Position numbers and translations under genes: made by a program. Of a stretch of 41,575 nt of DNA, positions 125-22,920 are shown piece by piece. The notes beneath the pieces were generated by a model. The model did not search any database. It worked only from the letters and a program-made list of their open reading frames with translations, and was not told where the DNA came from. The DNA is taken from contig JALWJU010000424.1 of the NCBI GenBank assembly GCA_026997055.1, forward strand, positions 1 through 41,575. Reading direction: 5' to 3'. This DNA comes from Paracoccaceae bacterium. Its GTDB lineage: Bacteria; Pseudomonadota; Alphaproteobacteria; Rhodobacterales; Rhodobacteraceae. Positions within the stretch are counted from its first letter, which is position 1. Every line of letters starts with the position of its first letter.

Positions 125-371
125 CCGGTGGTCCAAGTGTTGCAACGCTGTTTTGTCGCGATATTTCAATAGGTTGTGGCGCGCGAATTCGAGCGCATGG
201 TATCGCCGCCAACGTAGCGCCATGCTCGGCCCGAAATCCGGATGTTCTCATGCCATTTACCGGCAATGTTGCGCCTGAGTTCCACGCGCAAGTTTTGTTG
301 CGCATAGCCTTGATTGTTGCGCGTAAGGCGGTTTAACTGCGCATACATTGCTGCACAATCAGGGAAGCCCA

Positions 372-1790
372 ATGGCACAGCACATCTCCGAGGCCGATCT
401 TCGCGCGATCGAGAGCGCCGTGCGCAAGCACCCCGATGGCGCTTCTGCAAGCGAGATCTCCGAAGCCCTGAGCGCGAACCTGCCCCGGCGCACGCTGCAA
501 TACCGACTGAAGCACCTTGTGGATGCCGGTCGCCTGATCAGGAAGGGCAGTGGGCGGTGGGCACGGTACCATTCGCCCGCCGAACCTGCCGTTGGGGAAG
601 TCGCCGTCGGCACCGGCCGGAACGGCGATGAGGAACAGGTTTCCATTCCGCTCTCTGCCCCCGGCATGGAGATCAGGGAGTACCTCGCCCAGCCTCCTGC
701 CGCACGAAAACCGGTCGGCTACAATCGTGATTTCCTGGAATCCTACCAGCCCAACGTCACGACATATCTCTCGGAAGACGAACGTGCGCATCTGCAGGAG
801 ATCGGCCGACCCAACTTCGCCGAGCAACCGGCGGGCACCTATGCCCGGCACATTCTCGACCGGCTTCTGATCGATCTGTCATGGAATTCCAGCCGGCTCG
901 AGGGCAACACCTACTCGCTGCTGGACACCAGACGGCTGATCGAGTTCGGGGAGGAAGCCGAAGGGCGCGCCCATCTGGAAGCCCAGATGATCCTGAACCA
1001 CAAGGACGCAATCGCCTTTCTCGTCGATGCTGCCGAGGATATCGGATTCAACCGCTACACGATCCTCAACCTTCATGGTTTTCTTGCCCAGAACCTGCTG
1101 CCCGATGAATCCGCGGCCGGGAGGCTGCGCCATATCCCGATCGGCATTGAGCAATCAGTGTTTCATCCGCTTGAGGTGCCGCAGTGGATCGAGGAGTGCT
1201 TCGATCTGATCCTGGCAAAGGCGGCGGCGATTCAGGACCCGTTCGAGCAGGCCTTTTTCGTCATGGTGCAGCTGCCGTATCTTCAACCTTTCGATGACGT
1301 GAACAAGCGCGTCTCGCGCCTTGCTGCCAACATCCCCTTCATCAGGGCCAATCTCTCGCCCCTGTCCTTCAGCGACGTGCCACGTTCGATCTACACCGAT
1401 GCCGTCCTGGGGGTGTATGAACTCAACCGGGTCGATCTGCTGAAGGATGTGTTCATCTGGTCCTATGAACGTTCGGCCGCTCGTTATGCCGCGGTCCGGC
1501 AATCGCTGGGCGAACCCGACCCGTTCCGCCTGAAACATCGTGAGGCACTGCGGCGGGTCATCAGCGAGGTCGTGCGAGAACGGATGAGCAGAAAGGCGGC
1601 CGTACGGCACATCGCATCCTGGACGGCGCAGAACATCGACCGCCCCGAACAGGAGAAATTCCGCGAGATTGCCGAGAGCGACCTCCTCGGCCTGCACGCG
1701 GGCAATTTCGCGCGTTACGGGATCAGGCCGGCCGAATTCGCGGCCTGGCAGGAGGTGTGGACGGCAGAGGAAGGGCGCCGTGAATCATAG
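372..1790 (+). CDS. Fic/DOC-fold protein with N-terminal winged-helix-like region and a degenerate Fic motif
   Basis: The ORF 348..1790 starts at TTG, but ATG 372 (MAQHISEADL) follows AGGGAAG and is the likelier start. The motif SSRLEG fits the (S/T)xxxE(G/N) inhibitory-helix pattern. The region LPYLQPFDDVNKRVSRLAAN aligns to HxFx(D/E)GNGRxxR, with His replaced by Gln and both Gly residues replaced. Confidence 0.65.
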   Translation: MAQHISEADLRAIESAVRKHPDGASASEISEALSANLPRRTLQYRLKHLVDAGRLIRKGSGRWARYHSPAEPAVGEVAVGTGRNGDEEQVSIPLSAPGMEIREYLAQPPAARKPVGYNRDFLESYQPNVTTYLSEDERAHLQEIGRPNFAEQPAGTYARHILDRLLIDLSWNSSRLEGNTYSLLDTRRLIEFGEEAEGRAHLEAQMILNHKDAIAFLVDAAEDIGFNRYTILNLHGFLAQNLLPDESAAGRLRHIPIGIEQSVFHPLEVPQWIEECFDLILAKAAAIQDPFEQAFFVMVQLPYLQPFDDVNKRVSRLAANIPFIRANLSPLSFSDVPRSIYTDAVLGVYELNRVDLLKDVFIWSYERSAARYAAVRQSLGEPDPFRLKHREALRRVISEVVRERMSRKAAVRHIASWTAQNIDRPEQEKFREIAESDLLGLHAGNFARYGIRPAEFAAWQEVWTAEEGRRES

Positions 1791-2125: not shown

Positions 2126-5100
2126 TTGCAGATTTTTCACGATCTAGTGGTGAATAATCATGCTCAAAAACTATCAGTCGCTGATTCGAATGAAGCAATT
2201 TGCAAAGTTTTGATGTCCGGCAAGTACGCTGGGCGGTCACTATACCTGACGTTTGATGCTCAAGAGACCAAGGAAATCGGGAAGTTGCTCGGTGTCGACG
2301 AAGTCCACGTCGAGGAACTGTGCGCGAGCCTTGTTGGAGAGGCTCTTGATAAGGGGAGAAATCCCTTCCTGACTGCGTGCCGCGAAGCCCGGCTATGGAC
2401 CTCGGAAGGAATGCTCGGCCCGCCTCCATTCGTCACGCTCTTGCATGTTATGTCTCACGCTGCCGAGCTCATGGCCAACGACGGCGAGTATGCGGCAAAC
2501 GCTTACTACCCGCGGCTAGCTAACTTAATCGGGATACCGGCAGGGAACCTTCGGTCACATGGCAAACAGACGGAGCTTTTCTGGCGGCTTCTAGAGACCT
2601 GGCTCGCCGAAAACGACTACGAGCTGGGTCGCCCGACTGCCTCGGCGAGGGGCACCTGGAAGTACGTTGGGTTGGCAATGTCGCAGGCGATCGTTCGCTC
2701 TGCGGATCGCGCAGCGATGCACGATCTATTCAACACCTATGGTTTCTCCAGCGGAGATCAACTTACGTCTGCCGACATTTTCCCCTACGTGGACGATTGG
2801 ATGCGATCGAGCGGGTCAACGCCACGCCTCCGCAAGGCATGGGAGCAGAAAGACTTGCGCGGTCGCATTTGCGAGATTGTGATCGACGAGCTTCAGGATT
2901 GGTCAACCAGCTCTCTCGGCTCCTCTAGTATCGGACATAAAGAAAGATCCCATCGGCTCTCTCTCATCGCGCAAGTGCTGCCATCCTTTCCCAAGCCACG
3001 GCTCTTGCTTCATCTCGGTCGGGGCATTGAATTGAGCCAACCGCTTACCGGCCTCGAAGACGATATTGGTAATTCGTTCAGCCTTTCGAATTCTGTCTTT
3101 GGTGCGTTTGCCACGGTTTCACCAAACCCCATGGGGCGCGCAAACAGCGGGTTGGCGAGGAGTTTCTCCGTCACCGGCGGAGACCATCGTCTGCAATGGA
3201 GTTCTGGCCCGGTAATTCCGCTCGTGAAGTCGACTGAAGGTCCATACTGGACACAGGTCGCGCGCATTAGGATTGCAACGGACGTCCTTGTCCTGGTGCG
3301 TGACAAGCAGTCCCTCGTGGAAGGGTTGGAACGCTTACTCGCAGAGACCTCGACGGGCGAGGCGACCTACCTTACCCCAGAAGATCTCGACGGAATTCCG
3401 CACGGGTGGAGGCTGTACAAGGACGTACGGATAATCCGGACAACCGATAGTGAAGTGAAAACCGATCTAAAGAACTTGGTTCCCCTGTCAGAAGAGTCGG
3501 GATTCGTCATCACAGGTGGATTGCAAGTTACGCGGGGTATTTGGCATTCGAAAGCGCCCCCAAACGTCAACTTTGTCGCGGATACCGGGCCAACTCGGCT
3601 TGAAGCTCACCGTCCGAGCGACGGGGGGCTCCGGTTGGTCCGCGAGGCCCAATCAGCTTCACGGACTTGCGGCCTGTCGATGCGAGATCTTAAGGATGCG
3701 AGCTACACGGTACGTGGGTTCAAGTCTGGCAAGCAAACCGGCGAAACCCTCGTGGTGCTGCGGTCAGCTGAACGGGCGCGGCCCCTTGATCGCCAGATGG
3801 TTGGGCAACTTGCCCATGGGGCGATATTCTCGGCGGCCGAGTTTCCTCAGGAGGGTTCCGCTTCAACGATCCGGGGCAACATTGTCTGCCCAAAACCGCC
3901 TGCAACGGAGCCAACTTCAGTTGTGGAACCACGGGAGGGGGCGCAGATTCCGTCTGGAGACGGCTCGACGGAAGACGGAGAAAGCGACTTCGTTAACGAG
4001 GATGGCTCGGTCGACGAACCTGAATCGTGTGCCGGCCGAGGCTACCATTACTGGAAATGTGAATCCCCTCCCCATCGGGTGCCGATGTCCACCCCGCTCA
4101 AGATGGAATGCAAGGACTGTCACCAGGTGGTCATCGCAAGAAAACGCGGGCGCAGGAAGCAAAATGTCGAGGCAGCCACTATTCCCATCGCGCGCAGAAT
4201 CGCCCGCGGAAAATGGGAAGGAAAATCGAGTAACGCGGACATCGACTTCGATTTGCTGTTCGATGCGCTTTGCTTCCTAGGCTCGGGATCTTGGGGAAGA
4301 ATTGACCGGCTACTCGTGGGGCACGATATCCCTCCGTGGGCAATTGGCGAGATGGCAGCTGCATGGTCATCCTTGGGCTTGATCGACGTAGCATATGCAC
4401 CGGGGACACATCGCCCAAGGAAATGGAGTGTTCCGCCTCCAACGATTTGCATAACCGGAGATGGTCGGGGCTACTTTTCAGGATTTCGATGCGACCCACT
4501 CATCGAGTTGACACTTGAAGAGGTCGCAAATCTTGGTGGCTCTTCATTGAAGACGGAGCAAGACGGGGCGCCATGCCATTGGGGCATTCGCAACGTCGAT
4601 TTTTCTGATTTGGCCGAACGCGTAAGGCCATTGGAAGATCCGCTCGGGAGGCCATTCTCGATGGTTGAGCGCCCCGAAATTGACTTGGTAAGAGCCGCGT
4701 TTTCGGTCGCTGGGCTCGAAGCGTCGCTGCTTCCCATCTCGACGGGTTCATCTCTCCGCAACCTCCAGCGTTTCGACATCGAGGGTGCGCGATGGCGCCT
4801 GGTCGATGCGGTGTCTGGCGAAGGTGCCTACCGTTTTGACCACGGCGGTAGGGTCTATGTTTACCGTAGCCCCAATGGGCGCGAATTCATGGGCCCCCAA
4901 CAGGTGATTAAGCTTTTGGCGGCTAGGCAAAGTGGTAGGCGTCTTCACCGTTACGACGAGCATTCCCGGCAATTTTCTTCCACGCGGGGAGCCGAGCCGG
5001 TTGGCCTGCTTGCCCGTGCATTGGTAGCCTGCAGCGGTCAGCTTCCGCGAAAAGGCGACGACGGCATCACCACTTATGAAAAAGTCGCGCCGGAAGTCGG

Positions 5101-5146
5101 CCGCGCAGTGCTTTATAACCTTTACTCGAGGAAGATGATCGAATGA
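2126..5146 (+). CDS. Large protein of unknown function (1006 aa), DruH-like by size and position; first gene of the helicase operon
   Basis: Long ORF in the lower-GC island. Its stop overlaps the next gene's start (ATGA at 5143-5146). It has a Cys4 ribbon (CAGRGYHYWKC...CKDC) preceded by an acidic linker, and I recognise no catalytic motif. The start is ambiguous: TTG 2126, GTG 2147 or 2150, or ATG 2213. Confidence 0.55.
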   Translation: MQIFHDLVVNNHAQKLSVADSNEAICKVLMSGKYAGRSLYLTFDAQETKEIGKLLGVDEVHVEELCASLVGEALDKGRNPFLTACREARLWTSEGMLGPPPFVTLLHVMSHAAELMANDGEYAANAYYPRLANLIGIPAGNLRSHGKQTELFWRLLETWLAENDYELGRPTASARGTWKYVGLAMSQAIVRSADRAAMHDLFNTYGFSSGDQLTSADIFPYVDDWMRSSGSTPRLRKAWEQKDLRGRICEIVIDELQDWSTSSLGSSSIGHKERSHRLSLIAQVLPSFPKPRLLLHLGRGIELSQPLTGLEDDIGNSFSLSNSVFGAFATVSPNPMGRANSGLARSFSVTGGDHRLQWSSGPVIPLVKSTEGPYWTQVARIRIATDVLVLVRDKQSLVEGLERLLAETSTGEATYLTPEDLDGIPHGWRLYKDVRIIRTTDSEVKTDLKNLVPLSEESGFVITGGLQVTRGIWHSKAPPNVNFVADTGPTRLEAHRPSDGGLRLVREAQSASRTCGLSMRDLKDASYTVRGFKSGKQTGETLVVLRSAERARPLDRQMVGQLAHGAIFSAAEFPQEGSASTIRGNIVCPKPPATEPTSVVEPREGAQIPSGDGSTEDGESDFVNEDGSVDEPESCAGRGYHYWKCESPPHRVPMSTPLKMECKDCHQVVIARKRGRRKQNVEAATIPIARRIARGKWEGKSSNADIDFDLLFDALCFLGSGSWGRIDRLLVGHDIPPWAIGEMAAAWSSLGLIDVAYAPGTHRPRKWSVPPPTICITGDGRGYFSGFRCDPLIELTLEEVANLGGSSLKTEQDGAPCHWGIRNVDFSDLAERVRPLEDPLGRPFSMVERPEIDLVRAAFSVAGLEASLLPISTGSSLRNLQRFDIEGARWRLVDAVSGEGAYRFDHGGRVYVYRSPNGREFMGPQQVIKLLAARQSGRRLHRYDEHSRQFSSTRGAEPVGLLARALVACSGQLPRKGDDGITTYEKVAPEVGRAVLYNLYSRKMIE

Positions 5147-8100
5147 GACAGGCCACCCCGACGCGTGTTCAGAACTACATTCGAGAGGCATACCTGAAGT
5201 ACTACGACTCCGCCTTTTGGATGCGCGATGATGGTATCATGGCGGAGCGCCGTAAACTACTCCAAGCGGACGGTGTAATGGCACAAGAACCCCTCCTGGA
5301 AGCCGTTCCCCAGTACCCTTCGGTTGAAGCCATCGAAGAGGCATGCAAACGCGCTGGGCTAAGCTCAGAAACCGCTTCAAGACTAGGTCCGCTGGTATTT
5401 GGCTCCGACAAATCTATCAAGCTTCGTCAGCACCAAGCGGAAGCGCTCGTCGCTGCAATGGTCGGAAATGAACTGGGCCAGAGAAATGTCGTAGTGACCT
5501 CCGGTACCGGATCGGGGAAGACGGAGAGCTTTCTTCTCCCCATCTTGGCGGGAATACTGGAAGAGCGTGTAAGAAAGGGCAAGCGCGGCCCGATAAAGCC
5601 TTGGTGGGAGAAAGATCTCGAGCGCCACGACACGTCCTGGAAACACAGCCGATCGCTCGCTAGCAACACCTCGGACGCGGCAATCCGTGCCCTTGTCCTA
5701 TACCCGACCAACGCTTTGGTTGAGGACCAGATCTCGCGCTTACGTGGCGCGGCCATGCGGGGAATCGAGGAAACCGGAGAACCTATTTTCTTCTTCGGAA
5801 GGTATACCGGGGCGACGCTTGGTACAACTTACTTTCCACCGGGAACCCTAAAGGCAAGTGACCGCGGAAAGATCAATAAAATCTCGAAAGAAATCCGGGA
5901 TATTGCCCGGGAGGCCACAGAGCTCAAACATTCCCTCGAAGCGGCCGGCAAGTCACCGACCGAGATCTTGGAGGCGGCCAGCCAGTTCCAAGACCCATAC
6001 TGCGGCGAGATGCTCACGCGGTGGGACATGATCTCGGCGCCGCCGGACATTCTCATCACGAACACGAGCATGCTGAACATCATGCTGCTTCGTGATGTCG
6101 AAGTCCCTATTTTCGAAAAGACGCGAAAATGGCTCGAGGCCGACGAGGCAAACCACTTCAGCTTGGTCGTCGACGAACTACACAGCTATCGCGGCACGCA
6201 GGGAACAGAGGTTGCCTTGGTGGTCCGGAACCTACTGGACCGGCTAGGACTGGGACCCGACTCGGCCCAGCTTCGTTGCATAGGAACAAGTGCATCCTTG
6301 GACCCGGAGAGCGGAAAAGAGTACTTGGAACAGTTCTTCGGCGTTGACCGAAAGACCTTTGTAATCCTGCCGGGCCAACCCGAGGATTTCAGCGCAAACC
6401 TTCCCGTGGAAACGGATGTTCTGGAACGCAATCTTGCCCTCCTAAATTCCGAAGACCCGGAGAAGGTAAAGGCCGCTTCGGAAGATATATGTAAGCATTT
6501 TTCACCACGGATTGCACTTGCCGCCGCATGTAATGAAGCTGGATCGCTCGTCTCGTCAGCAGGAGGTGCCGGAGACTCCGCAGTAATAGTCCGGCCAGCG
6601 AAGCTATCTAAAATTGGAAAATCCCTTTTCGGGGCGAGAAGCTCGCACGAGCTTCTTGATGCAATCATGATCGCGGCAGCGCATGAAGACCGAGGAACCT
6701 GGGAAAAACCCAAGCCGACTTTCAGGTCGCACATGTTCATGCGCCAAGTGCAAGGTATTTGGGCATGTTCGAACCCTGAATGCACCGAGGTAGAGAAGGA
6801 ATTCAGGTCGAGGGGGCGGAAGATTGGCCGCCTCTTCAAGTCACCCGCGTTGAAGTGCGAGTGTGGCGGTCAAGTCCTGGAGTTACTGTACTGCTACGAT
6901 TGTGGAGAAGCCTTCCTCGCGGGCTTCGTAGTCCCATCCAGTAGCGAAGCGCTGAAGGATCAGATCTTCCTGGAGGCAACGAAATCAGTGGAGGGCGGCG
7001 GATATCCCGGCATGGTCTACGAGCGACCACACTCCGAGTTTAGGTGGTACTGGCCGGGCGGCCAAATCCCTGCCGGGTCATCGCGTTGGACACACGGGTT
7101 TCCCGGGGAGGGTGGATCAGGAACCTTCCAGTTCCAGACTGCTCGGTTCGATCACCACCTAGGGCTGCTGGTACCCGGTGACCCCGAGCCCACGGGTGTC
7201 GTGTTAACCATCCCACCGGACCTTCCCGAGGGGCGCACCGTTGCTGGGCTCCCCGAGACCTGCCCCCATTGCCTGAGCTCCTACAGCTCACGAAACCAGC
7301 GAGACCTGAAGGCTTTCTACCGCGGCACGGTCCAAACTCCCATCCGCGGGTTGCGCACCGGCTTGAATGTGACAACCCAGCTGATTGCCGACCGCGCGAT
7401 GTTGTCGGCCGGTGACGGAGCAACTGCCGAGAAGATGATCGCATTCACGGATAGCCGTGACGATGCCGCCGACTTGGCCGCCGGACTAGAACTGCATCAT
7501 TTTCGAGACCTGGTGAGGCAGCTTGTCTTCAAGCAGTTCTCAGGCGCGGCCATCCTTACCTGCGCGGAACTCCAGAAGATCATCCAAGCAGTGAAAAATG
7601 GCGATCCAGATGCCGTCGCAAAACGAGACGCCGCGAACGAGAAGACCCCAGGAATCTATGAAGCCGCGGTAAAGATCGCGTTCGGAGTGGACGAGGAAGC
7701 AGATAGGGAGCTGGCCGCAAGGCACGATGCAGCCGTTGAGAGCGGATCCATCGCGTGGTCGGCCCTGATGATCGCGCTTCGGGAATCCCTGGTCGCTCTT
7801 GGTCAGAATCCAGCAGGGACGGACGCGAGTCGTGCCACTGACCGCCCCGACGGCGGTGGGACGCCCTGGTGGAAGTTCTTCGATCCCCCGGAAGGTGCAA
7901 CGTGGGCACCACTCGATGCAGCTGCCGCGAGTGATGGCCGCCGTGAATTCATGGCGCACCTATCTAGGACGGTAGCTTCTTCTCTCTTCGACCAAGCGGG
8001 CCGAGATCTTGAGTCGATGGGGACTGCAACCATCGAGCTTGACTCGGAATGCGGCGCAAAGCTCGGAATGGACGATGCATTGGCCAAGGGGATAGTCGGC

Positions 8101-10650
8101 AACATCATCCGGATCCTAGGGCAGGCACGGTTGCTCGAAGGCGAAAGGACGCGCGCTTCGACGAATCCTCCGAAACAAGTCACGGAGTATCTCGAAAAGC
8201 TCGCGCCCTTGGTAAACCGACAACCGGGCGAACTCGCGGAAACTATCAAGGAGCTTCTTCTCCAAAAGAACGCGTTGACCGATCAATGGCTCCTTGCAAT
8301 CGGTCGGTATGCTTCGTTCCCACTAAAGCTGGTTCCGAGAGGCGAACGGACCCTGAAAAGGTGCGTAAAATGTGCAAAGTCCACCATGGTAACCCCCTTG
8401 AACGTTTGCACGACACCCCACTGCGACTCGCGCGATTTCGTCGACGTTCCCAACCCAGATGAGGACTACTATGCCTGGGTTTCACGAGAACCCGTCCACC
8501 GAATGTCCGTCGCTGAGCTGACCGGCCAGACGAAACCCATGTCCGAACAGAGAAAAAGGCAGCGCCTGTTCAAGGGCCAAGCGTTCGTTGGCGAGGAACA
8601 CGAGGTCACGCATGGCCTCGATGCCCTGTCAGTCACGACAACAATGGAAGTCGGCGTCGACATCGGCTCCCTGAAACTTGTCATGATGGCGAACATGCCA
8701 CCCCAAAGGTTTAACTACCAACAACGGGTTGGTCGAGCTGGTCGAGCCGGACAGGCATTCTCTTACGCAATAACCATCTCTCGCGGTGCCGCTCACGACG
8801 ACTACTACTTCAACAAGCCAGAGCGCATGACCGGGGATGTCCCGCCTCAGCCCGAGCTAGACCTCTCCCGGCCAGAGATCATTCGACGCGTTTCGACAGC
8901 GGAAGCGTTGCGTCGTGCATTTGGCAGCCTTTCAAACCCGCCAGCGCGAAGCCCGGAGAGCGCGCATGGCGCTTTTGGCTCCGTCGACGAATGGTTTCCG
9001 ACTTACCGCGCGAGTATTTCGAACTGGCTGTCGACGTCGCCGGAAGTTAACGAAATCGTGGAAAGGCTTTGTGCTTATACGCCGCTTGAGCGCACGGCCC
9101 AGGCCGATGCGATCGTGTCTTATCTTCGGAACGAACTCATCACGAAGATCGGTGAGTGTGTTCAAAGCAGTCAGTTCATCCAAGCCGAACTTAGTCACCG
9201 GCTGGCAGTTGCAGGCCTACTCCCGATGTTTGGGTTCCCAACGCAGGTGAGAAGCCTATTTTGGGACAAGATGGCGAACCGGGCAGAAGACACCGTGATC
9301 AGCGACCGCCCCCTCGATCATGCAATTTGGGCCTTTGCACCAGGTTCGGAGATACCAAAAGACAAGCGGTTATACACGGCTTGCGGCTTCGTCCTACGCC
9401 GAGACGGCTTCCAAGGCGTCGTGAATGAAGCCGCTCCGCTCGGTGCCTCCTTACCCTACTGGAGGTGCACGGAAAAGGCGTGCGGGACAATAGCTCAAGG
9501 CAATGCCGAGACCTGCCACGTCTGCGGGAATCCTGCGCAGACATTCCCCCTATACCAGCCGAAAGGCTTCATGGCACACTGGAAGGCCAGGGACTACGAT
9601 GGCCAACGTCAGCGCGGCCCCGCGCTTCCTCCACCAGTTCGCGCATTCGATCAGGCCTACGATCCATCAAGCAGTTGTGGCCCAATGCTCCTAGCACTCG
9701 GACAAGGACAGGTCGCCCTGATCAACGATAACGGCGGCGATCTATACGAGTTCACCCAAGAACCGCATGACAAGGTCACGGTCCGTGACAGCTCGCTTTA
9801 TCGGGATGGCAACATGTTCACGGGCGTAGGGGGGGAAGTAATTGATCGCGGGGCCATCGGAGCGGTCTTCACGACCGACGTGTTGAGCTTCTACTTTGAC
9901 GGCGCACCCGGCGTGGGCAACGCGGGCGTTCTTGACGTTGTCGAACAAAGGTCCGCGCGCGCCGCCATCGCCTCCTTCGCCGAGTTCGTGAAGCTCGCGA
10001 TTTCCACCGAGCTGGATATTGACCCAGAGGAGTTTCGTTCCGGCCGCCAGCGCTTGAAGCTTGATGGGCGCGCCTGTGAAACGGAGCAGGTTTTCATCGC
10101 GGATAAGCTGGAGAACGGCGCGGGGTATTCCCGATGGGCCGCGAAACCCGAGAACATGCGGCGCTCACTCGAGCGGTTCTTGGATGGAGACGATGGCGTC
10201 GGGCGATCTTGGCAGGACGACGCCCATGCGCGAGACTGCGATTGTTCGTGCCCAGACTGCCTGAGAAGCTACGCCAATCGTTTCATACACGGCCTGTTGG
10301 ATTGGCGCCTCGCGCTCGACCTCGCAGACCTAGCGCTGGGACGTGGACTCGACACGGGAAGGTGGCTTGGAGGTCCAGAGGATCGAGCGGCACAATCGTT
10401 CAAGGCTTTTTGCGATAGCACGGGTCTTCCCGTCGAAATTGATTACGCGGAAGGTCTCACGGCAATCGTTTCTGGTGCCAATGCTCTAATTCTCGGCCAT
10501 CCACTTTGGCACACCCGGGAGGGCCTGTGGCAACCCCAGCAAGTTGATGCCCGAAATGAACTACGCGCGAGGGGCATCGAGGCCAAGTGCGTCGATGTGC
10601 GCGACTTCGCTGCCCGCCCTGCCGTCTACTACATGGAGCTTCGCACGTGA
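5143..10650 (+). CDS. druE: DEAD/DEAH-box superfamily-2 helicase with C-terminal DUF1998 (MrfA-type Zn) domain, 1835 aa; DruE-like (Druantia)
   Basis: Walker A VVTSGTGSGKTESFLLP, motif II VVDELHSYRG, motif VI QQRVGRAGRAGQ, and the C-terminal cluster CDCSCPDCLRSYANRF typical of DUF1998. Several additional CxxC pairs are present. The size and the fused helicase+DUF1998 architecture match DruE rather than the split DISARM DrmA/DrmB. Confidence 0.75.
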   Translation: MRQATPTRVQNYIREAYLKYYDSAFWMRDDGIMAERRKLLQADGVMAQEPLLEAVPQYPSVEAIEEACKRAGLSSETASRLGPLVFGSDKSIKLRQHQAEALVAAMVGNELGQRNVVVTSGTGSGKTESFLLPILAGILEERVRKGKRGPIKPWWEKDLERHDTSWKHSRSLASNTSDAAIRALVLYPTNALVEDQISRLRGAAMRGIEETGEPIFFFGRYTGATLGTTYFPPGTLKASDRGKINKISKEIRDIAREATELKHSLEAAGKSPTEILEAASQFQDPYCGEMLTRWDMISAPPDILITNTSMLNIMLLRDVEVPIFEKTRKWLEADEANHFSLVVDELHSYRGTQGTEVALVVRNLLDRLGLGPDSAQLRCIGTSASLDPESGKEYLEQFFGVDRKTFVILPGQPEDFSANLPVETDVLERNLALLNSEDPEKVKAASEDICKHFSPRIALAAACNEAGSLVSSAGGAGDSAVIVRPAKLSKIGKSLFGARSSHELLDAIMIAAAHEDRGTWEKPKPTFRSHMFMRQVQGIWACSNPECTEVEKEFRSRGRKIGRLFKSPALKCECGGQVLELLYCYDCGEAFLAGFVVPSSSEALKDQIFLEATKSVEGGGYPGMVYERPHSEFRWYWPGGQIPAGSSRWTHGFPGEGGSGTFQFQTARFDHHLGLLVPGDPEPTGVVLTIPPDLPEGRTVAGLPETCPHCLSSYSSRNQRDLKAFYRGTVQTPIRGLRTGLNVTTQLIADRAMLSAGDGATAEKMIAFTDSRDDAADLAAGLELHHFRDLVRQLVFKQFSGAAILTCAELQKIIQAVKNGDPDAVAKRDAANEKTPGIYEAAVKIAFGVDEEADRELAARHDAAVESGSIAWSALMIALRESLVALGQNPAGTDASRATDRPDGGGTPWWKFFDPPEGATWAPLDAAAASDGRREFMAHLSRTVASSLFDQAGRDLESMGTATIELDSECGAKLGMDDALAKGIVGNIIRILGQARLLEGERTRASTNPPKQVTEYLEKLAPLVNRQPGELAETIKELLLQKNALTDQWLLAIGRYASFPLKLVPRGERTLKRCVKCAKSTMVTPLNVCTTPHCDSRDFVDVPNPDEDYYAWVSREPVHRMSVAELTGQTKPMSEQRKRQRLFKGQAFVGEEHEVTHGLDALSVTTTMEVGVDIGSLKLVMMANMPPQRFNYQQRVGRAGRAGQAFSYAITISRGAAHDDYYFNKPERMTGDVPPQPELDLSRPEIIRRVSTAEALRRAFGSLSNPPARSPESAHGAFGSVDEWFPTYRASISNWLSTSPEVNEIVERLCAYTPLERTAQADAIVSYLRNELITKIGECVQSSQFIQAELSHRLAVAGLLPMFGFPTQVRSLFWDKMANRAEDTVISDRPLDHAIWAFAPGSEIPKDKRLYTACGFVLRRDGFQGVVNEAAPLGASLPYWRCTEKACGTIAQGNAETCHVCGNPAQTFPLYQPKGFMAHWKARDYDGQRQRGPALPPPVRAFDQAYDPSSSCGPMLLALGQGQVALINDNGGDLYEFTQEPHDKVTVRDSSLYRDGNMFTGVGGEVIDRGAIGAVFTTDVLSFYFDGAPGVGNAGVLDVVEQRSARAAIASFAEFVKLAISTELDIDPEEFRSGRQRLKLDGRACETEQVFIADKLENGAGYSRWAAKPENMRRSLERFLDGDDGVGRSWQDDAHARDCDCSCPDCLRSYANRFIHGLLDWRLALDLADLALGRGLDTGRWLGGPEDRAAQSFKAFCDSTGLPVEIDYAEGLTAIVSGANALILGHPLWHTREGLWQPQQVDARNELRARGIEAKCVDVRDFAARPAVYYMELRT

Positions 10651-12620
10651 TCGAGATCATCGGACAACACGGCACCCCCGAATACGACGCGGCCCTAAAG
10701 ATCCGTGCGGCTCTGAATTCCTATTGGCCGGGAATAGACAAGTCGCCAGCCGATCTAGACCACGTTAAGATCGCGGTGAATACCAAGTTGGCTGGGTACA
10801 AGGTAAGCGACATCGACATCGTAATTGCGGCCAAGTTTGCCCGAGGACGGTATTTTGTACCGAAATCAACCCTAAAAGACAAGGACGGGCGCAGGATCGT
10901 CGGGGCTAAGATTCGGGTCTTCTCTCTCGTGGCCGCCATAGAGGTCAAGGGACATGACGCGCGTGGATTGAACATTAGCAACGGTGGCATCAATGTAACT
11001 TACAAGGGCGGATCGAAGAGCGCGACAGATCAAAATGATGCTCAGGCACAGGCGCTAAAGAGTTACTTCAGTGATCTCACGCGTCAGAACCCGTGGGTGT
11101 ATCGTTCGGTACTCCTCACTGGCATCAACGAACTTCCAAGGGATCGAGGACGCCGGGTTCCGGATGCCGGTGCCGTGGCGGCGAACTTTGATTTCGCAAC
11201 CTTGCTTTGCGCGATGGTAGGGATCCATGGTGTCGGCAAGATCGGAAACGAGTACACGATTTCGTCCGCCAAGCCGAACACCATGGAAACCATACTGTCC
11301 GCCTCCATCTTTCGCCGGGTGGTACCATCGAACCTCGACCGAAAAAAGATGGATCGGATTGCTGCTAGACCACCGGAAGCGCTGGAACTTGCCGGCCGGA
11401 TCGGTGCGGAACGGGTTCACCTCCGCGGTGAAGGTGGAACTGGCAAAACCGTTCTGCTGGCACAGGCGGCGCACGAAGGCTTCAGGTCGCATGGAAAACG
11501 CTCGCTGTTTCTGACCTACAACCACGCCTTAACCGCCGACATTCAAAGGCTTCTAGCCCTACTCGGAGTTCCTAGCAGTGGCGAGTCCGGGGGCGTGGAT
11601 GTCCGAACCGTGATGTCTTTCATTTACTCCTGGTTACGAAGGCTTGGCGCAATTGGCGCTGATGAGGACTTGGACTTCGACCGGTACAGCGAACACTGCA
11701 CGAAGGCTCTGGAATTCTTAGAGGCCGGGCTCTTGACCGACGAAGACATTGCGCGGGCAAAATCCAGCAACTTCGAAGAATTCGATTACGATGCCATCCT
11801 CGTTGATGAAGCGCAGGATTGGCCGCAACCAGAAGCGGACCTACTTGTCAGGCTATACGGGGGCAACCGAATTTCCCTGGCAGACGGGATTTCCCAGCTC
11901 GTGAGGGGCACGGCCACGGACTGGCGGTCATCCGTTCGTGATCGTGAGGGTACAAAGAATCTCGCGCTCCATGAATGCTTGCGCATGAAGAACAATCTCG
12001 GGCAATTTTCGAATCTCGTTGCCGAACAAGCCGGCCTAAATTGGCAAATTACCCCGAACTCGCAGGCCGCGGGCGGAAGAGTCATCATTCGAGACGGATT
12101 CTTCCACGAGATGCCGGACTTGCATCGGGATCTCTTGACCAAGGCGGCGGATGATGGATGCGAGCCAATTGACTGCCTTTACTGCGTTCCTGCCTCGGGA
12201 GTTCAAACGCGCGGGAATGGCCGAGCTAGCATCCTTGGCATTGCAATGGAAGATCGGGGGCTTTCTGTTTGGGATGGTGTTGACCCTATCGCGCGTCGTG
12301 ACTACCCCAGATCCACCAAGGACAACCGGATCGTTCAATACGATTCCTGTCGAGGCCTCGAAGGTTGGGTGGTCGTTCTCGACTCCTTGGACGACTTTTG
12401 GGAAGCCAAGTACCGTGTTGCTCTTGCGGAACCACCTGTTTCGAGTATCCCAATGAGTCCAGAGGAGCGAGCGCGGCGGGTAGCATGGACGTGGTGCATG
12501 ATGGCATTCACTCGGCCCATCGACACACTCGTAATTACTCTCAAGAATCGCGGAAGCGAGGTCTCACAGGCATTGAGTCGCATCGCAGAAGCCAACCCGG
12601 ACCTCGTCGATGTACCATGA
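10647..12620 (+). CDS. NERD/PD-(D/E)xK nuclease domain fused to an SF1 (UvrD/AAA_19-like) helicase ATPase, about 657 aa
   Basis: GTG 10647 overlaps the druE-like stop (GTGA), so I prefer it to the GTG at 10587 given in the ORF track. The N-terminal SDIDIVIAAKF...VAAIEVKGHD (D..E-x-K) followed by Q-rich DQNDAQAQALKSYF resembles NERD. Walker A is GEGGTGKTVLLAQ, Walker B is AILVDEAQDW, and the C-terminal DSCRGLEGWVVVL resembles the UvrD_C KGLE motif. Confidence 0.75.
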   Translation: MIEIIGQHGTPEYDAALKIRAALNSYWPGIDKSPADLDHVKIAVNTKLAGYKVSDIDIVIAAKFARGRYFVPKSTLKDKDGRRIVGAKIRVFSLVAAIEVKGHDARGLNISNGGINVTYKGGSKSATDQNDAQAQALKSYFSDLTRQNPWVYRSVLLTGINELPRDRGRRVPDAGAVAANFDFATLLCAMVGIHGVGKIGNEYTISSAKPNTMETILSASIFRRVVPSNLDRKKMDRIAARPPEALELAGRIGAERVHLRGEGGTGKTVLLAQAAHEGFRSHGKRSLFLTYNHALTADIQRLLALLGVPSSGESGGVDVRTVMSFIYSWLRRLGAIGADEDLDFDRYSEHCTKALEFLEAGLLTDEDIARAKSSNFEEFDYDAILVDEAQDWPQPEADLLVRLYGGNRISLADGISQLVRGTATDWRSSVRDREGTKNLALHECLRMKNNLGQFSNLVAEQAGLNWQITPNSQAAGGRVIIRDGFFHEMPDLHRDLLTKAADDGCEPIDCLYCVPASGVQTRGNGRASILGIAMEDRGLSVWDGVDPIARRDYPRSTKDNRIVQYDSCRGLEGWVVVLDSLDDFWEAKYRVALAEPPVSSIPMSPEERARRVAWTWCMMAFTRPIDTLVITLKNRGSEVSQALSRIAEANPDLVDVP

Positions 12621-12648
12621 TCCACTTGCTGGATGAAAGTTCAGATGG

Positions 12649-12885
12649 GTGAACGATTTCGTAACATTTTCTCTAGAAAATCGTTTCATGCGTGTTTGGA
12701 AACTCGAAGCCTGCTGGGATGAAGAGCGGATCGCGTGCCGCTGGGGATATGCACTCGCCGTTTCGGCCGAGGAAGCACTTGCCCTGTGCAAGGCCACGAG
12801 CGGACTTCCCCTGAATTTCGTACACGAGAAACATCCTGCCATGCTTTGGCCGGGGGAACCCGGGAAACGGGTCAGTTGGAGCTAA
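12649..12885 (+). CDS. Possible small Trp-rich protein (65-78 aa), hypothetical
   Basis: Open frame from GTG 12649, or ATG 12691 (MRVWKLEACWDEERIACRWGY...). It lies directly downstream of the helicase operon and its last 14 nt overlap the convergent glycosylase gene. No recognisable motif. Confidence 0.25.
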   Translation: MNDFVTFSLENRFMRVWKLEACWDEERIACRWGYALAVSAEEALALCKATSGLPLNFVHEKHPAMLWPGEPGKRVSWS

Positions 12886-13585
12886 GCGCTCCCTTCGACC
12901 TACAACGGGAGAAAACAAGGCAAGCCGAGCATCCCGGCCTCCGTGCCGTGCAGACCAGACTTCCGAAATCTAACACTGACCAGTTTATCTCGATAGGCTG
13001 TTGTCCCTTCACGAGCCAATGAGCAGCCTCCTGTAGCCAAGGGTCGTGGCGAATATCGGCGAGTCGACGGGGGCGGATGTATCTCTCGAGCAGCCTTGCC
13101 ATGTTGACATCGAGCAAGGGCCGCGGCTGGCCATGCTGGAACAAGAGAATTGCGTTTTGGACATACTGGCCCACGGCCGGCACCGAGGAAAGCTCGGCGG
13201 GGTCATCCGGGAAAACCCCGCCCCTGCCGCTAGCGTAGGAAGCAAGCCCTTTAAGCGAAAGCGCCCTGCGTTTCCAAAGTCCGATCGGCCGGAGCAGTTC
13301 CTCAAGGTCCTCGGTTCGTGTTTCCGCGATATCCGCCCAACTTCGAAATCGCGAGAAGAACCCCTCGTAAATACCGGCCACGGTTTCCGCGCGTGTTCGC
13401 TGGAGGAGAACCTCCACACAGATCCTCTCGAAAGTACCGGTCCCCGGTGTGCGCCATGGCAAGCTGCGGCCGTGTTGCGCGTACCACTGCAAGAGATGAC
13501 GCCGCAGGCGGGTAATCCGTTGTTTTTCCCCGCGCGTCAGGGGATCAGGCGAAGACATGGACTTCCGGTGGCGGAAAGAGGGCAT
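12872..13585 (-). CDS. HhH-GPD superfamily DNA glycosylase (EndoIII/MutY/Mig-like) with a [4Fe-4S] cluster; likely monofunctional mismatch glycosylase
   Basis: LPWRTPGTGTFERICVEVLLQRTRAETV matches the MutY/Nth N-terminal signature. The HhH is VPAVGQYVQNAILLF, with Tyr where EndoIII has the lyase Lys. The catalytic-Asp region is LLDVNMARLLERY. The cluster CTARRPGCSACLVFSRC fits C-x6-C-x2-C-x5-C. The gene overlaps the upstream endonuclease gene. Confidence 0.75.
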   Translation of the reverse strand: MPSFRHRKSMSSPDPLTRGEKQRITRLRRHLLQWYAQHGRSLPWRTPGTGTFERICVEVLLQRTRAETVAGIYEGFFSRFRSWADIAETRTEDLEELLRPIGLWKRRALSLKGLASYASGRGGVFPDDPAELSSVPAVGQYVQNAILLFQHGQPRPLLDVNMARLLERYIRPRRLADIRHDPWLQEAAHWLVKGQQPIEINWSVLDFGSLVCTARRPGCSACLVFSRCRSKGALSSN

Positions 13586-14747
13586 CGAAATCCGAGGGAT
13601 GGATCTTGAACAGGTACCCGTGATCGCGCACGCGCCGCGGCCCCTTCTGTGACATCAAGTAGTCCACGGAAACAACCCCACCCTCGAGAAGGGCGTCGAG
13701 GTTCCTTGCCCTTGGCTCCTTCGTGTGGACCACCCGGACATAGTGAAATTCCTCGCTAGAGCCTCTCCCCCGCGTTTTAGCCTCGACCCAGAAGGTCTGG
13801 GGATGTTTGTCTTGTAGACGGGTGCGGAGCTTGTCCATTTCCCAAGTCGTAACATGGGTCTTGGTCAAGGTATCCGTGTCGACATGGTTCTGTTTCAACC
13901 AGTCTTTCACGGAATCTACCTCTAGAATAAATCCAGTGGAGTTTGGTTTTAACGCGTTTATCTCGCAGTTTAGCCGCAGCTTTCCATCGCGAAAGTAGCC
14001 GTATGTCGATAGCAGGTTCCACGCGTTTTCTATTGGGCTTATCTTCCAATTTGGAGCCTGGGAAAAAAGGGTCACGCGGTTCGGATTTTTCGTCTTCAGG
14101 CGTTTTGCCTTGATCTCGATGCCCTTGAAGTCTGGCTCCTTGCTCGAGTTTGCGGCAATGCCTAGCAGGGTTTCAAGCGTCATCCCCACGCCAGTGTCGC
14201 CCGGTCGCAAGGTTGGAACAAACCCTCGCCCGGAAATCTCCCGGATCCGTTCAAGGAGCTCGACGACAGCGGGTTCCGGCGCGATCTTGCCCACCCGTGC
14301 CGCGATCTCGAAAAGAGGCGTGCCCGGCTTGTTGATCGAGTTCAAGATTTCAGCGCGGCTACAGTTTACCACGTAAAGCGTGTCGTCCTGAACGATCAGG
14401 GCGAGAAGATTGTACGGCTCCGCGTACTTCCCAAGCCGACTGAACCAAATGCGCGGGTCTCCCTTCTTCGTCATCGGTCGGTAAAGCGAAACCGTTGTCT
14501 TCTCGAGGCCCCTAGGTCCAACGAAGAAAACCCTCCTCGTCACCTTTGCATCGGGACCCTGCTCCTGGGAGTCGTAGTCATGAAATCCCGCATCGACGAG
14601 GTATCGGCGGACGTTGCCGGTCGCATCGATAATCGATTTTTTCATGCCGGTGGGCGTGGGAACGAGCAGGCCGACATCCAAGTCGTACTTGTTGAAGGTC
14701 TTCAGGACCTCGCTGATACTCGTGTCGCTCTTCTCAAGCATCGTCAC
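13545..14747 (-). CDS. Type II restriction endonuclease, MutH/Sau3AI/MvaI-BcnI-like catalytic domain with an extra N-terminal domain
   Basis: GDTGVGMTLETLLGIAANSSKEPDFKGIEIKAKR closely parallels the MutH segment [33 protein letters not shown], which carries the E-x-K active site. The gene overlaps the upstream C5-methyltransferase gene by 14 nt. Confidence 0.6.
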   Translation of the reverse strand: MTMLEKSDTSISEVLKTFNKYDLDVGLLVPTPTGMKKSIIDATGNVRRYLVDAGFHDYDSQEQGPDAKVTRRVFFVGPRGLEKTTVSLYRPMTKKGDPRIWFSRLGKYAEPYNLLALIVQDDTLYVVNCSRAEILNSINKPGTPLFEIAARVGKIAPEPAVVELLERIREISGRGFVPTLRPGDTGVGMTLETLLGIAANSSKEPDFKGIEIKAKRLKTKNPNRVTLFSQAPNWKISPIENAWNLLSTYGYFRDGKLRLNCEINALKPNSTGFILEVDSVKDWLKQNHVDTDTLTKTHVTTWEMDKLRTRLQDKHPQTFWVEAKTRGRGSSEEFHYVRVVHTKEPRARNLDALLEGGVVSVDYLMSQKGPRRVRDHGYLFKIHPSDFDALFPPPEVHVFA

Positions 14748-16158
14748 CTAGGGCCGCATCGAGGATTCTCTTGAAATGTTTCCCGACCTTCTCCGCGAGG
14801 CCAACCGGAACAGCATTGCCAATTTGCGTGTATTTCGGGACCTCGCGATCGAATATGCCTTCCAGAGGGTTCCCGGCCCGGCGCAGGCCACCCGTCGTGC
14901 GTTTCCCGGCAAAACGATACCAGTCGGGAAAAAGTTGCAAGCGCGCCCATTCCCGCACGGTCAGGATTCGCGGCTGGAGGTAGTGCACGTAGTCGTCTGG
15001 CAACGAGGTCGCGGTAATGTTGGGTTCGCCGTTGCCCCACCTAGGCTTCAGGACACGTTGCGAGAACTTCCGCGTCTTGTACTCGTCCGGGATTTCGCCA
15101 TTGTTCTGCAGCATGTGGTCAAACTTCGCGACAACGGTTGCCTTGTGCTTGCTGTATTCCTGCTCAGTCAGCACTACCCGGCGCTTCGAATACCATGGCG
15201 GTGCACTGCGGAGGCGTTTTTGAATAGGCGTGCGCGCTGGCCGAGGGTAGGCAGTGGTTTCGAACTTTCCACGTGGAAAACTGCCCGATCGCAGGACATC
15301 GGCGACAGAGGGGTCAACGAGATCGCCAAGAAGGTCCACGAGGTCCGGGTAAGTCCCCGGGTTGCCTCTGGGCAAAAAGCCGCATTTCACCGCATCCTCG
15401 GGATCAGCTCCCGGGTCGAGGAAGGGACATGCCTCCAGAATGTCCTTGCGGATACCGACGAGAAGAACGCGCGGGCGGTTCTGTGGAACGCCGTAATCCT
15501 TCGCGTACACTAGGGACCACCTGACCTCGTATCCGGGAATCCTCCGGAACTCGGCTTTCACGTCGGGAAAAATCAATTCACAGCCGCTTTTCGTCCACTT
15601 GGCATTCAGCAATCCCCGCACGTTTTCAAACAGGAAGATACGCGGGCGCAGCCGGCGAATGACCTGCGCCATGCGCCCATACAGGTGGTTCGACGGAATC
15701 TCCTTGCGGTCAACAGCGTAGGAACGACGGATCCCGATTCCAGAGTAGCCCTGGCAAGGCGGCCCACCCGCCAGAACGTCCAGTGTGCTACCCCCACCGG
15801 TGGCCGGGTTAGCCCTGTCTAAAGGAACAAAGTTTATTTCGGGAATACTGGCCAAGTCCGAAACCAAGGCATCAAGACGCTTCCCCTTGAGGCTCTGTGC
15901 GTCTCGGCAATGAAGCGCCTCGTTCTCTGAGAATTTCATGCCTCCCAGCTCGTGATGCCTATTTTGTAGGTACGTAGCCAGGGCATCCTTGTCTAGCTCG
16001 TTCACGAATACAGGGGTAAAGGATGCGTTTTCGAAGCCGAGAGAAAGGCCGCCACAGCCTGCAAACAAGTCAACCATCGTGTAAAATCGCGACCCATGGG
16101 ATCGCCGCGTCTCCGGTCCAACTCTTTCAATCGTTCCAGCTATATCACCCTGTAACAT
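14734..16158 (-). CDS. DNA (cytosine-5)-methyltransferase
   Basis: All canonical C5-MTase motifs are present: I DLFAGCGGLSLGF, IV GGPPCQGYS, VI FLFENVRGL, VIII QNRPRVLLVG, X GNAVPV. Confidence 0.95.
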   Translation of the reverse strand: MLQGDIAGTIERVGPETRRSHGSRFYTMVDLFAGCGGLSLGFENASFTPVFVNELDKDALATYLQNRHHELGGMKFSENEALHCRDAQSLKGKRLDALVSDLASIPEINFVPLDRANPATGGGSTLDVLAGGPPCQGYSGIGIRRSYAVDRKEIPSNHLYGRMAQVIRRLRPRIFLFENVRGLLNAKWTKSGCELIFPDVKAEFRRIPGYEVRWSLVYAKDYGVPQNRPRVLLVGIRKDILEACPFLDPGADPEDAVKCGFLPRGNPGTYPDLVDLLGDLVDPSVADVLRSGSFPRGKFETTAYPRPARTPIQKRLRSAPPWYSKRRVVLTEQEYSKHKATVVAKFDHMLQNNGEIPDEYKTRKFSQRVLKPRWGNGEPNITATSLPDDYVHYLQPRILTVREWARLQLFPDWYRFAGKRTTGGLRRAGNPLEGIFDREVPKYTQIGNAVPVGLAEKVGKHFKRILDAALGDDA

Positions 16159-16255
16159 CGTGCCGCTCCCGTGATTCTTTACACCCGTTGACTAACACAT
16201 GTAGTATGCAAGGTCCAGGTGGAAACCACATCTGGGAATACTCTACCGGGATCAC

Positions 16256-17720: not shown

Positions 17721-17746
17721 GGTCGTTTCCTTCTGGTGATTGGAGA

Positions 17747-22917: not shown

Positions 22918-22920
22918 GGG

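Follow-up and report, generated by a model that had tools for sequence, protein, structure and literature searches.

Which defence system is encoded by a three-gene operon at positions 2126-12620 of a contig from a Paracoccaceae bacterium (GenBank assembly GCA_026997055.1, contig JALWJU010000424.1), and what does its third gene add? The stretch of DNA that was analyzed, called the window below, is 41,575 nucleotides (nt) long and is read on its forward strand. A first interpretation made from the letters of this stretch, the sequence-only reading, had taken the first two genes as the DruH-DruE pair of Druantia type III, and the third, which encodes a nuclease fused to a superfamily 1 (SF1) helicase, as a candidate for the missing effector of that type. 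On balance, the profile, structure and gene-context comparisons favor a Druantia variant of the type II/IV clade that carries the nuclease-helicase as a dedicated third component, probably its effector. Judged from its gene content, the locus appears to match none of the Druantia subtype definitions that were checked.

Operon Organization and the DruE Helicase

Three open reading frames (ORFs) were confirmed at 2126..5146, 5143..10650 and 10587..12620, all co-directional on the + strand. Neighboring genes overlap by 4 nt at both junctions: the gene 1 stop overlaps the gene 2 start in ATGA (5143..5146), and the gene 2 stop overlaps the gene 3 start in GTGA (10647..10650). The three-gene, translationally coupled operon that had been described earlier was thereby verified in its reading frames and in both overlaps.

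The signature of Druantia is druE, which encodes a helicase of ~1800-2100 amino acids (aa) with DUF1998/MZB, and gene 2 (5143..10650, + strand; 1835 aa) answers to this description in PADLOC, Pfam and PDB comparisons. Its best PADLOC profile is DruE2 (PDLC00014; 1441 bits, full length), followed by DruE4 (1290 bits), DruE1 (608 bits) and DruE3 (347 bits). It also matches PDB chain 9wae_A, a canonical type II DruE, at E = 3.7e-132. Pfam recognizes DEAD and Helicase_C, and GSGKT (residues 123-127), DELH (344-347) and C1703xxC1706 are invariant in 31 orthologues. By these matches, gene 2 is a DruE of the type II/IV clade, a YprA/MrfA-like superfamily 2 (SF2) DEAH helicase that carries a DUF1998/MZB zinc module. 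The helicase part of the earlier annotation (a DEAH helicase with DUF1998) is borne out by DEAD, Helicase_C and DELH, but Pfam sees MZB/DUF1998 only below threshold (21.7 bits against a cutoff of 24.2).

No nuclease domain was found in gene 2 by Pfam. Two HxKx4D strings of the phospholipase D (PLD) type are present, but neither is conserved among the 31 orthologues, and the idea of a DruE with its own PLD nuclease was rejected on this ground. A survey of YprA-like helicases predicts that the DruE of types I and II ends in an inactivated Vsr domain at the C-terminus and credits type III alone with an active PLD domain (Bell et al., 2025; 10.1101/2025.09.15.676423). The DruE clade of gene 2 appears to be without a detectable active nuclease.

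The helicase matched in the PDB is a 1970-aa chain, deposited as 'Helicase' in seven entries (9wae, 9waf, 9wds, 9wdu, 9wdv, 9wdw and 9wdy), that corresponds to canonical type II DruE and aligns with Agrobacterium DruE2 at 2388 bits. The literature search found no publication on 9wae and the six related entries, and sequence searches of the PDB gave no chain for gene 1, for gene 3 or for canonical DruF2 and DruG2.

The Long DruF Protein

Gene 1 (2147..5146, + strand) encodes a long DruF, recognized by its PADLOC DruF2 matches. Its longest ORF (2126..5146; 1006 aa) starts with TTG 2126, and further candidate starts are GTG 2147, GTG 2150 and ATG 2213. Because of the homologue alignment, in which the closest homologue has 998 aa, GTG 2147 or 2150 is most likely the start, giving a protein of 999 or 998 aa. 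The gene caller's ATG 2213 (977 aa) would cut a conserved N-terminal segment, since conservation begins ~20 codons upstream. The 1006-aa ORF noted earlier does exist; its first codons are probably untranslated.

Two profiles labeled 'DruF2' cover the protein, PDLC00023 (E = 4.6e-106, profile positions 12-979 of 1011) and PDLC00016 (E = 1.6e-104, full length). They form a sub-family distinct from canonical DruF2 PDLC00019 (837 aa). The DruH profile of PADLOC gave no match at E <= 0.01, and with the strong DruF2 match this ruled out DruH as the identity of gene 1. No Pfam or NCBIfam family was matched, in line with the earlier remark that the protein is without known domains.

The C-terminus of gene 1 gives a weak PADLOC match to DruL4. 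In three of the loci compared below (L079, L082 and L084), the single gene 1 is replaced by a 554-664-aa DruF and a separate 302-423-aa DruL-like protein. In L082 and L084, the separate DruL protein aligns to the C-terminal part of the long 'DruF2' profile (positions 744-1007). Gene 1 is thus the fused equivalent of the two, a single chain that unites a short DruF with DruL-like sequence.

For gene 1, the AlphaFold2 model (pLDDT, for predicted local distance difference test, 73.7) comprises a helical domain (18-261), a beta-rich immunoglobulin (Ig)-like region (274-590) and a confidently predicted alpha/beta module at the C-terminus (708-1000). A Cys/His cluster (C635, H641, C662, C665) is invariant. 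Model and profile searches of the PDB gave nothing significant, the only matches being to Ig-like beta-sandwiches at a template modeling (TM) score of about 0.08. The model, which is of moderate confidence, shows no P-loop NTPase fold, the feature sought being an inactivated McrB-like NTPase (CnuB) with an extended coiled coil, which the Type IV CoCoNuT view of Druantia I and II calls for.

Because gene 1 matches DruF and not DruH, and DruE3 scores lowest for gene 2, the pair is not of type III. PADLOC does recognize both genes as Druantia, as the sequence-only reading had expected, but these profile matches place them in the type II/IV clade.

The Nuclease-Helicase

Gene 3 (10647..12620, + strand; 657 aa) is identified as a nuclease-SF1 helicase by its AlphaFold2 model, Foldseek matches, motif conservation and synteny, residues ~1-225 being a predicted PD-(D/E)xK (NERD-like) domain and residues ~250-657 the SF1 helicase core. 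The longest form of its ORF (10587..12620) would give 677 aa. The start at GTG 10647, which had already been proposed from its overlap with the druE stop, is backed by homology: over 100 related proteins, 650-661 aa in length, align with the 657-aa form from its first residue on. The protein contains a Walker A motif (GEGGTGKT), a Walker B motif (ILVDEAQD) and the series D55/D57...E99-V-K101.

The C-terminal part was assigned to the SF1 helicase core because the model (pLDDT 85.1) matches UvrD, Rep, PcrA, Upf1, SLFN14, Dna2, AdnAB and GajB at a Foldseek probability of 1.0, and at the level of the predicted structure the SF1 fold is confirmed. For residues 1-225, the predicted order of elements is alpha-beta-beta-beta-alpha-beta, in which D55/D57 open strand 2 and E99-V-K101 closes strand 3; as predicted, this arrangement is that of a canonical PD-(D/E)xK nuclease. 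Conservation was assessed in 49 near-full-length relatives (31-82% identity) drawn from every architecture class described below. D55, D57, E99 and K101 are kept in 47/47 aligned sequences, and GxGKT, DExQD, R569GLEG and T622R623 in 46/46.

The NERD label is a different matter. For 6/10 N-terminal domains searched in isolation, PF08378 (NERD) is the top or only Pfam family. The register is the same each time, but the scores (12.9-17.5 bits) stay under the cutoff of 22.1 bits. A true NERD+UvrD protein of the Deinococcus C3a187 type aligns with the gene 3 family by hhalign (96.7%) through the helicase core only. The label is thus weakly supported. Of the NERD/PD-(D/E)xK nuclease and SF1 helicase proposed earlier, the Walker A/B motifs, the SF1 fold and the D...ExK signature stood, while the NERD matches all fell below the gathering score.

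Database comparisons place gene 3 outside the known Druantia components. PADLOC Druantia models matched neither gene 3, nor 23 diverse homologues, nor the homologues in L048 and L079. The other PADLOC matches are weak: 'NERD+UvrD' C3a187, AbiO, and, with partial coverage, GajB (E = 6e-5) and Nhi (E = 0.003). No GajA partner is present at the locus. Searches of the PDB by single sequence and by profile returned nothing, and Pfam and NCBIfam gave only sub-threshold P-loop matches. A further candidate identity was DruG. Plasmid pR76 of Agrobacterium pusense holds a canonical type II locus (L086) with the gene order methylase - DruF2 (837 aa, PDLC00019) - DruG2 (698 aa) - DruE2 - Vsr, its DruG2 being identified by PDLC00025 at E = 1.7e-124. 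The hhalign probability between this DruG2 and the gene 3 family is 0.09%, by which DruG was ruled out, and PADLOC detected no DruG2 among the proteins of the window locus.

The earlier statement that described Druantia systems hold no such component agrees with these comparisons. It also agrees with the literature search, in which Druantia was nowhere connected with a NERD or SF1 nuclease-helicase; the operon figures of the YprA survey lay outside this search, so that a prior depiction is possible. No such component appears in the portions of text and supplements covered of the PADLOC paper (PMC8565338) and the YprA survey (10.1101/2025.09.15.676423). The gene 3 family itself is large, with 564 clusters at E <= 1e-30 among 50%-identity representatives, nearly all of ~650 aa.

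Gene Context of the Nuclease-Helicase in Other Genomes

Relatives of gene 3 were sought in one genome per GTDB species. The search gave 206 confirmed relatives, of which the best 80 were taken with 10-kb flanks and typed by tblastn with the window proteins and reference Dru proteins. DruE adjoins the gene 3 relative in 68 of the 80 loci, or in 68 of the 72 with adequate flanks, so the linkage between gene 3 and druE-like genes, on which the sequence-only reading had staked its claim, is conserved elsewhere. Class A, with the order long-DruF - DruE - gene 3 as in the window, holds 29 loci. Class B (27 loci) reads DruD1 - DruE1 - gene 3, and in class C (5 loci) gene 3 lies upstream of short DruF - DruL - DruE. 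Seven more loci have DruE - gene 3 with the upstream partner cut off or undetected; one of them, L076, is canonical type I DruB-C-D-E. Class D comprises the 12 loci in which DruE was not detected, 8 of them truncated by the contig end.

The 4-nt overlap between the DruE stop and the gene 3 start is found in 24 of the 29 class A loci. Across 29 loci, identity to the window gene 3 follows identity to the window DruE (r = 0.986) and to the window DruF (r = 0.954). By these data, Alpha-, Beta- and Gammaproteobacteria pass on the three genes together, as one unit.

The layout of class B derives from type I: at their far upstream edge, 16 of the loci carry a homologue of DruA with 60-72% identity to that of P. 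putida. The order in this class (L033-L072; for example L048, 1378-11992) is DruA and, after a gap of ~900 bp, a 651-aa protein, then DruD1, DruE1 and the homologue of gene 3. The 651-aa protein has no PADLOC match, and the layout departs from the canonical A-B-C-D-E order. In loci from sphingomonads and the Azospirillum group (L044, L048, L051, L052, L054-L057, L061, L062, L068), the DruA-like gene has 29-33% identity and is found instead on the opposite strand, downstream of the gene 3 homologue.

Six more distant members of the gene 3 family were also inspected. One (L105) stands behind a DruE-like helicase of 2000 aa, from which it is separated by PDDEXK_1 and Mrr-family nuclease genes; another clusters with a split DEAD + MZB helicase (L106, L107); and for two more (L102; L103/L104) the contigs are too short for the context to be judged. 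Together with the exceptions described below, these contexts indicate that the family predominantly, but not exclusively, partners YprA/DruE-type helicases.

The Adjacent Restriction-Modification Module

Downstream of the operon and convergent with it, three genes on the - strand encode a Mig-like HhH-GPD glycosylase (12872..13585; Pfam HhH-GPD, E = 2.3e-13), a type II restriction endonuclease of the MvaI/BcnI family (13545..14747; Pfam MvaI_BcnI, E = 3.7e-60) and a C5 cytosine DNA methyltransferase (14734..16158; Pfam DNA_methylase, E = 1.4e-53). This trio of restriction-modification (R-M) and glycosylase genes is complete, and the methylase gene overlaps the endonuclease gene. In PADLOC, the methylase scores 227 bits as MTase_II against 174 bits as DruM2, and the glycosylase matches the REase_II 'nicking endonuclease' (E = 1.2e-24).

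Of the 29 class A loci, 22 have a C5 methylase no more than 10 kb away. In 14 of these, it is 69-79% identical to that of the window, as against a mean identity of 33% for DruF and 54% for DruE. The trio recurs next to Dru genes in many genera, its order and orientation varying: homologues of the window endonuclease are found there in at least 14 loci, and the Mig-like glycosylase co-occurs in nine (L001, L010, L015, L016, L017, L019, L020, L021 and L024). No C5 methylase was detected in the 27 loci of class B. Vsr adjoins canonical type II Druantia in L086 and L094.

The C5 methylase is probably a linked, self-marking component with a DruM-like role that serves also as the methylase of the adjacent type II R-M system. 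The MvaI/BcnI endonuclease is recurrently linked, but its membership of the system is uncertain. By analogy with Vsr beside type II Druantia, the Mig-like glycosylase presumably repairs the T:G mismatches that arise by deamination of 5-methylcytosine (5mC). Because type II Druantia needs a methylase and canonical loci have Vsr adjacent, a functional link between the operon and the methylase, through 5mC marking of self DNA, is plausible on the same analogy.

Alternative Readings of the Locus

Several observations weigh against a dedicated role for gene 3. In a reverse sampling, 15 DruE-containing plasmid loci were picked irrespective of gene 3, and the gene was present only in the two with a long DruF (Shinella pZ25 and an Aliisedimentitalea plasmid). 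It is absent from four canonical type II loci (L085, L086, L092, L094), from five cyanobacterial loci with split DruF, DruL and DruE, from three probable type I loci (P. putida, Meiothermus and Hymenobacter) and, outside this sampling, from L096-L098, a remote clade with long-DruF-DruE at 25-27% identity, known from Ornithinimicrobium and metagenomes. The DruF/DruE core evidently persists without it. Relatives of gene 3 also occur apart from DruE: four loci hold one without DruE despite adequate flanks (L037, L040, L071, L075), a distant member in L100 has no DruE nearby, and on a metagenomic contig (L101, 3812-12088) a relative directly follows a type I R-M hsdMSR operon. The census covers the best 80 of 206 confirmed relatives in a family of 564 clusters, and its loci are related by descent, so that counts and correlations overstate independent events. 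The nuclease assignment comes from motifs, predicted secondary structure and sub-threshold NERD matches only, and a need for gene 3 in defence and its binding to DruE are suppositions from sequence, fold and gene context. Since gene 3 is absent from the distant long-DruF clade, the split loci and canonical type II, it is an addition to the DruF-L/DruE core made within one mainly proteobacterial lineage, and a type I-derived lineage gained it in parallel.

These exceptions keep alive the reading of gene 3 as an autonomous nuclease-helicase defence module, akin to Nhi or 'NERD+UvrD', which lodges by translocase systems independently of DruE and DruF. It would explain the weak PADLOC matches to Nhi, AbiO, GajB and C3a187, the relatives without DruE or behind a type I R-M operon, and the DruF/DruE cores that lack the gene; E. 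coli type I Druantia, moreover, functions as five genes. We nevertheless consider such autonomy rather unlikely, as the 4-nt overlap with druE is kept in most class A loci, DruE adjoins in nearly all assessable loci across two Druantia architectures, gene 3 diverges in step with DruE as expected of a co-inherited unit and not of a mobile solo gene, and the similarity to true NERD+UvrD is limited to the helicase core. The boundary of the system could also lie further out, in a six-gene unit of DruF-L, DruE, gene 3, C5 methylase, MvaI/BcnI endonuclease and Mig-like glycosylase in which Druantia reads 5mC. The closely related methylase beside Dru genes in 14 class A loci, from several families and in varied order and orientation, points in this direction; in many cases this methylase gene runs the same way as gene 3 and follows it at about 130-340 bp. 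DruM is by definition part of type II Druantia, whose canonical form has Vsr adjacent, and the long-DruF clade without gene 3 also has a C5 methylase and Vsr. However, the R-M-Mig trio needs no partner to serve as a normal type II R-M system, is absent or of another type in 15 of the 29 class A loci, has no methylase counterpart in class B and lies on the opposite strand in the window, and defence genes cluster anyway. The six-gene unit is therefore a possibility, though a doubtful one. Readings that keep to a described subtype fare worse. An ordinary type II Druantia, with gene 3 as a relocated DruG, would accord with the type II labels of the best DruE and DruF profiles, the DruM2 match of the nearby methylase and the similar sizes of DruG (698 aa) and gene 3 (657 aa). 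Its probability is close to negligible, as no DruG2 was detected and gene 3 is unrelated to it, the window DruF belongs to another sub-family than canonical DruF2, and the methylase scores higher as a type II R-M enzyme and has its own endonuclease. The type III-like pair that gained its missing effector, as the sequence-only reading had it, would suit the size of gene 1, which is near that of DruH, and its predicted layout, which resembles the published DruH architecture. It is very improbable, given the DruF match of gene 1, the rank of DruE3 as the weakest profile for gene 2 and the want of a conserved PLD motif in the window DruE. In addition, the type III effector, which the sequence-only reading took as unresolved, is accounted for by now: two 2026 preprints show type III DruE to be a helicase-nuclease and DruH an exonuclease, so that no effector is missing. 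We thus return to the reading of a type II/IV-clade variant with a dedicated nuclease-helicase.

Relation to Known Systems

Type II Druantia is said to have been described by Doron in 2018 as DruM-DruF-DruG-DruE. The window locus shares with it the DruE clade, a DruF-family gene immediately upstream of and overlapping druE, and a C5 methylase with a deamination-repair enzyme nearby. It differs in being without DruG, in its longer DruF sub-family with a DruL-like C-terminal module, in its extra nuclease-SF1 helicase and in a methylase that is part of a complete type II R-M system. The requirement for DruM belongs to the definition of type II (PMC8565338), a type that is called 'Type IV CoCoNuT' by Bell et al. 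(2025; 10.1101/2025.09.15.676423). Type IV, in turn, is defined without DruM, as DruF-DruL-DruE (Payne et al., 2021; PMC8565338). Like type IV, the window has DruF-like and DruL-like sequence followed by DruE, with a high DruE4 score, and no DruG. Unlike type IV, it has DruF and DruL fused in one 1006-aa protein, gene 3 is added, and a methylase is usually linked in its class. The split DruF/DruL/DruE loci that were examined lack gene 3, except those of class C, where it lies upstream. Since PADLOC v2 has no Druantia model for gene 3 and DruG is missing, a type II call is unlikely, and the program would probably leave the locus incomplete or mis-type it.

The likeness to type III lies in a large accessory protein without assigned domains that precedes DruE in an overlapping gene, and whose helical, Ig-like and C-terminal domains loosely resemble published DruH. 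This modeled layout may be the source of the earlier type III impression. However, gene 1 is DruF, the window DruE belongs to another clade without the active PLD nuclease of type III, and type III has no third gene.

A closer parallel for gene 3 is found in ARMADA type II. According to the YprA survey, the YprA-like ArmC almost always precedes ArmD, an SF1 helicase with an N-terminal nuclease-type domain, and deletion of ArmD abolishes ARMADA type II defence (10.1101/2025.09.15.676423). The likeness is architectural: a YprA/DruE-like helicase is followed in both, in fixed order, by an SF1 (GajB/UvrD-like) helicase. The differences are that the ArmD N-terminus is RelE-like whereas that of gene 3 is PD-(D/E)xK, and that ARMADA needs a BrxHII-like helicase and a PglX-like methylase, neither of which was found among the window ORFs scanned. 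The helicase partner in the window, moreover, is a DruE with DruF-L. Nhi and 'NERD+UvrD' (C3a187) share with gene 3 the order of a PD-(D/E)xK or NERD nuclease and an SF1 helicase, and the helicase cores are homologous. The profile matches to them are weak, however (E = 1e-5 to 3e-3), the N-terminal domains do not align, and these systems are described as stand-alone or associated with clustered regularly interspaced short palindromic repeats (CRISPR), whereas the gene 3 subfamily is coupled to druE. Finally, AddAB, AdnAB and RecBCD also combine two helicase motors with a PD-(D/E)xK nuclease, and the structure comparison of gene 3 returned AdnAB and Dna2 among its matches. AddAB, AdnAB and RecBCD, however, serve housekeeping repair and are built of SF1 motors, whereas one motor in the window is SF2 and YprA-like, and a complex of the window proteins is hypothetical.

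A Possible Mechanism

DruE, as a 3'-5' SF2 translocase, could act with DruF-L to recognize foreign DNA and load onto it. By analogy with type III, the target would probably be DNA with single-stranded or forked replication intermediates; it might also be DNA without the 5mC mark of the linked methylase. Gene 3 would then be recruited to, or activated on, DruE-bound DNA and degrade it by its SF1 motor and nuclease, so that DruE and gene 3 would form a two-motor helicase-nuclease in the manner of ArmC-ArmD, AddAB, AdnAB or RecBCD. Gene 3 is proposed as the nuclease-bearing second motor because ArmC-ArmD is the closest functional precedent. As such, it may supply the DNA-cutting activity that the window DruE appears to lack, and a role as the nuclease effector of this lineage is plausible from its sequence features. 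We infer complex formation, nuclease and helicase activity, the effector role and methylation-based discrimination between self and foreign DNA from the sequences and their context.

A broader proposal, which we put forward tentatively and with more doubt than conviction, is that the gene 3 family is the missing nuclease effector wherever DruE has lost its own nuclease, that it docks on DruE, and that it was recruited independently by type I- and type II/IV-derived systems. If so, gene 3 would define at least two new Druantia subtypes, and docking of the kind suggested by ArmC-ArmD and DruE-gene 3 would be general to YprA-centered immunity. The ArmC-ArmD parallel suggests a rule by which YprA-family defence helicases pair with an SF1 helicase bearing a nuclease-type domain. 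The DruE of types I, II and IV is predicted to hold only a dead nuclease domain. Gene 3, coupled to and co-diverging with DruE in dozens of species and in two Druantia architectures, is a concrete candidate effector, and the sister systems with and without it offer a natural comparison.

The Island and Further Observations

The operon sits in a low-G+C defence island, an assignment based on the G+C content of the first 16 kb of the window (55-61%) against that of the remainder (64-70%). A sharp G+C step at about 16000-16300 marks the right-hand border, and the left border lies beyond the window. No tRNA gene that might mark the island border was found in the window, no integrase was identified among the few window ORFs scanned, and promoter and terminator scans at the operon ends gave nothing above chance. 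Upstream of the operon, the gene at 348-1790 (+ strand) encodes an HTH_20 and Fic/DOC protein with weak PADLOC matches to PDC-S04 and SoFic, possibly a separate defence or toxin gene. It was rejected as a component of the system, as none of the 80 related loci holds a homologue.

Among the gene 3 relatives without DruE, that of L037 lies among metal-resistance genes, and that of L075 (Pseudohongiella; 4793-8513) directly follows a TIR-domain gene and an HNH gene. L084 (Deinococcus aquaticus pDATS03; 6072-23121), one of the 15 plasmid loci sampled by DruE, has in place of gene 3 a different protein, a genuine NERD+UvrD (C3a187, E = 4.5e-73), 640 bp downstream of its split DruF-DruL-DruE. With the Druantia genes on one side of it and a type III-A CRISPR csm cluster on the other, it could belong to either. 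In L094, a canonical type II locus on a plasmid of Rhizobium sp. WSM4643, DruM and DruF are separated by an additional 646-aa 'ATP-binding protein' (2256-4196) that is unrelated to gene 3 (best BLASTP E = 0.01), and a McrBC pair lies just downstream. In L095 (10001-14593), a 1530-aa ORF (P0160, whose cluster has 14 member sequences) joins a Pfam-recognizable UvrD helicase to a DruF-like region just upstream of DruE. Its use as Rosetta-stone evidence was rejected, since the DruE of this contig is frameshifted and the fusion is possibly an assembly artefact, and it was kept merely as another SF1 helicase beside DruF and DruE. In the distant long-DruF-DruE loci L096-L098, a C5 methylase lies near the pair, with Vsr as well in L096, and in L097 and L098 an MTaX1-domain gene (PF20296) immediately follows DruE, the position that gene 3 holds in the window.

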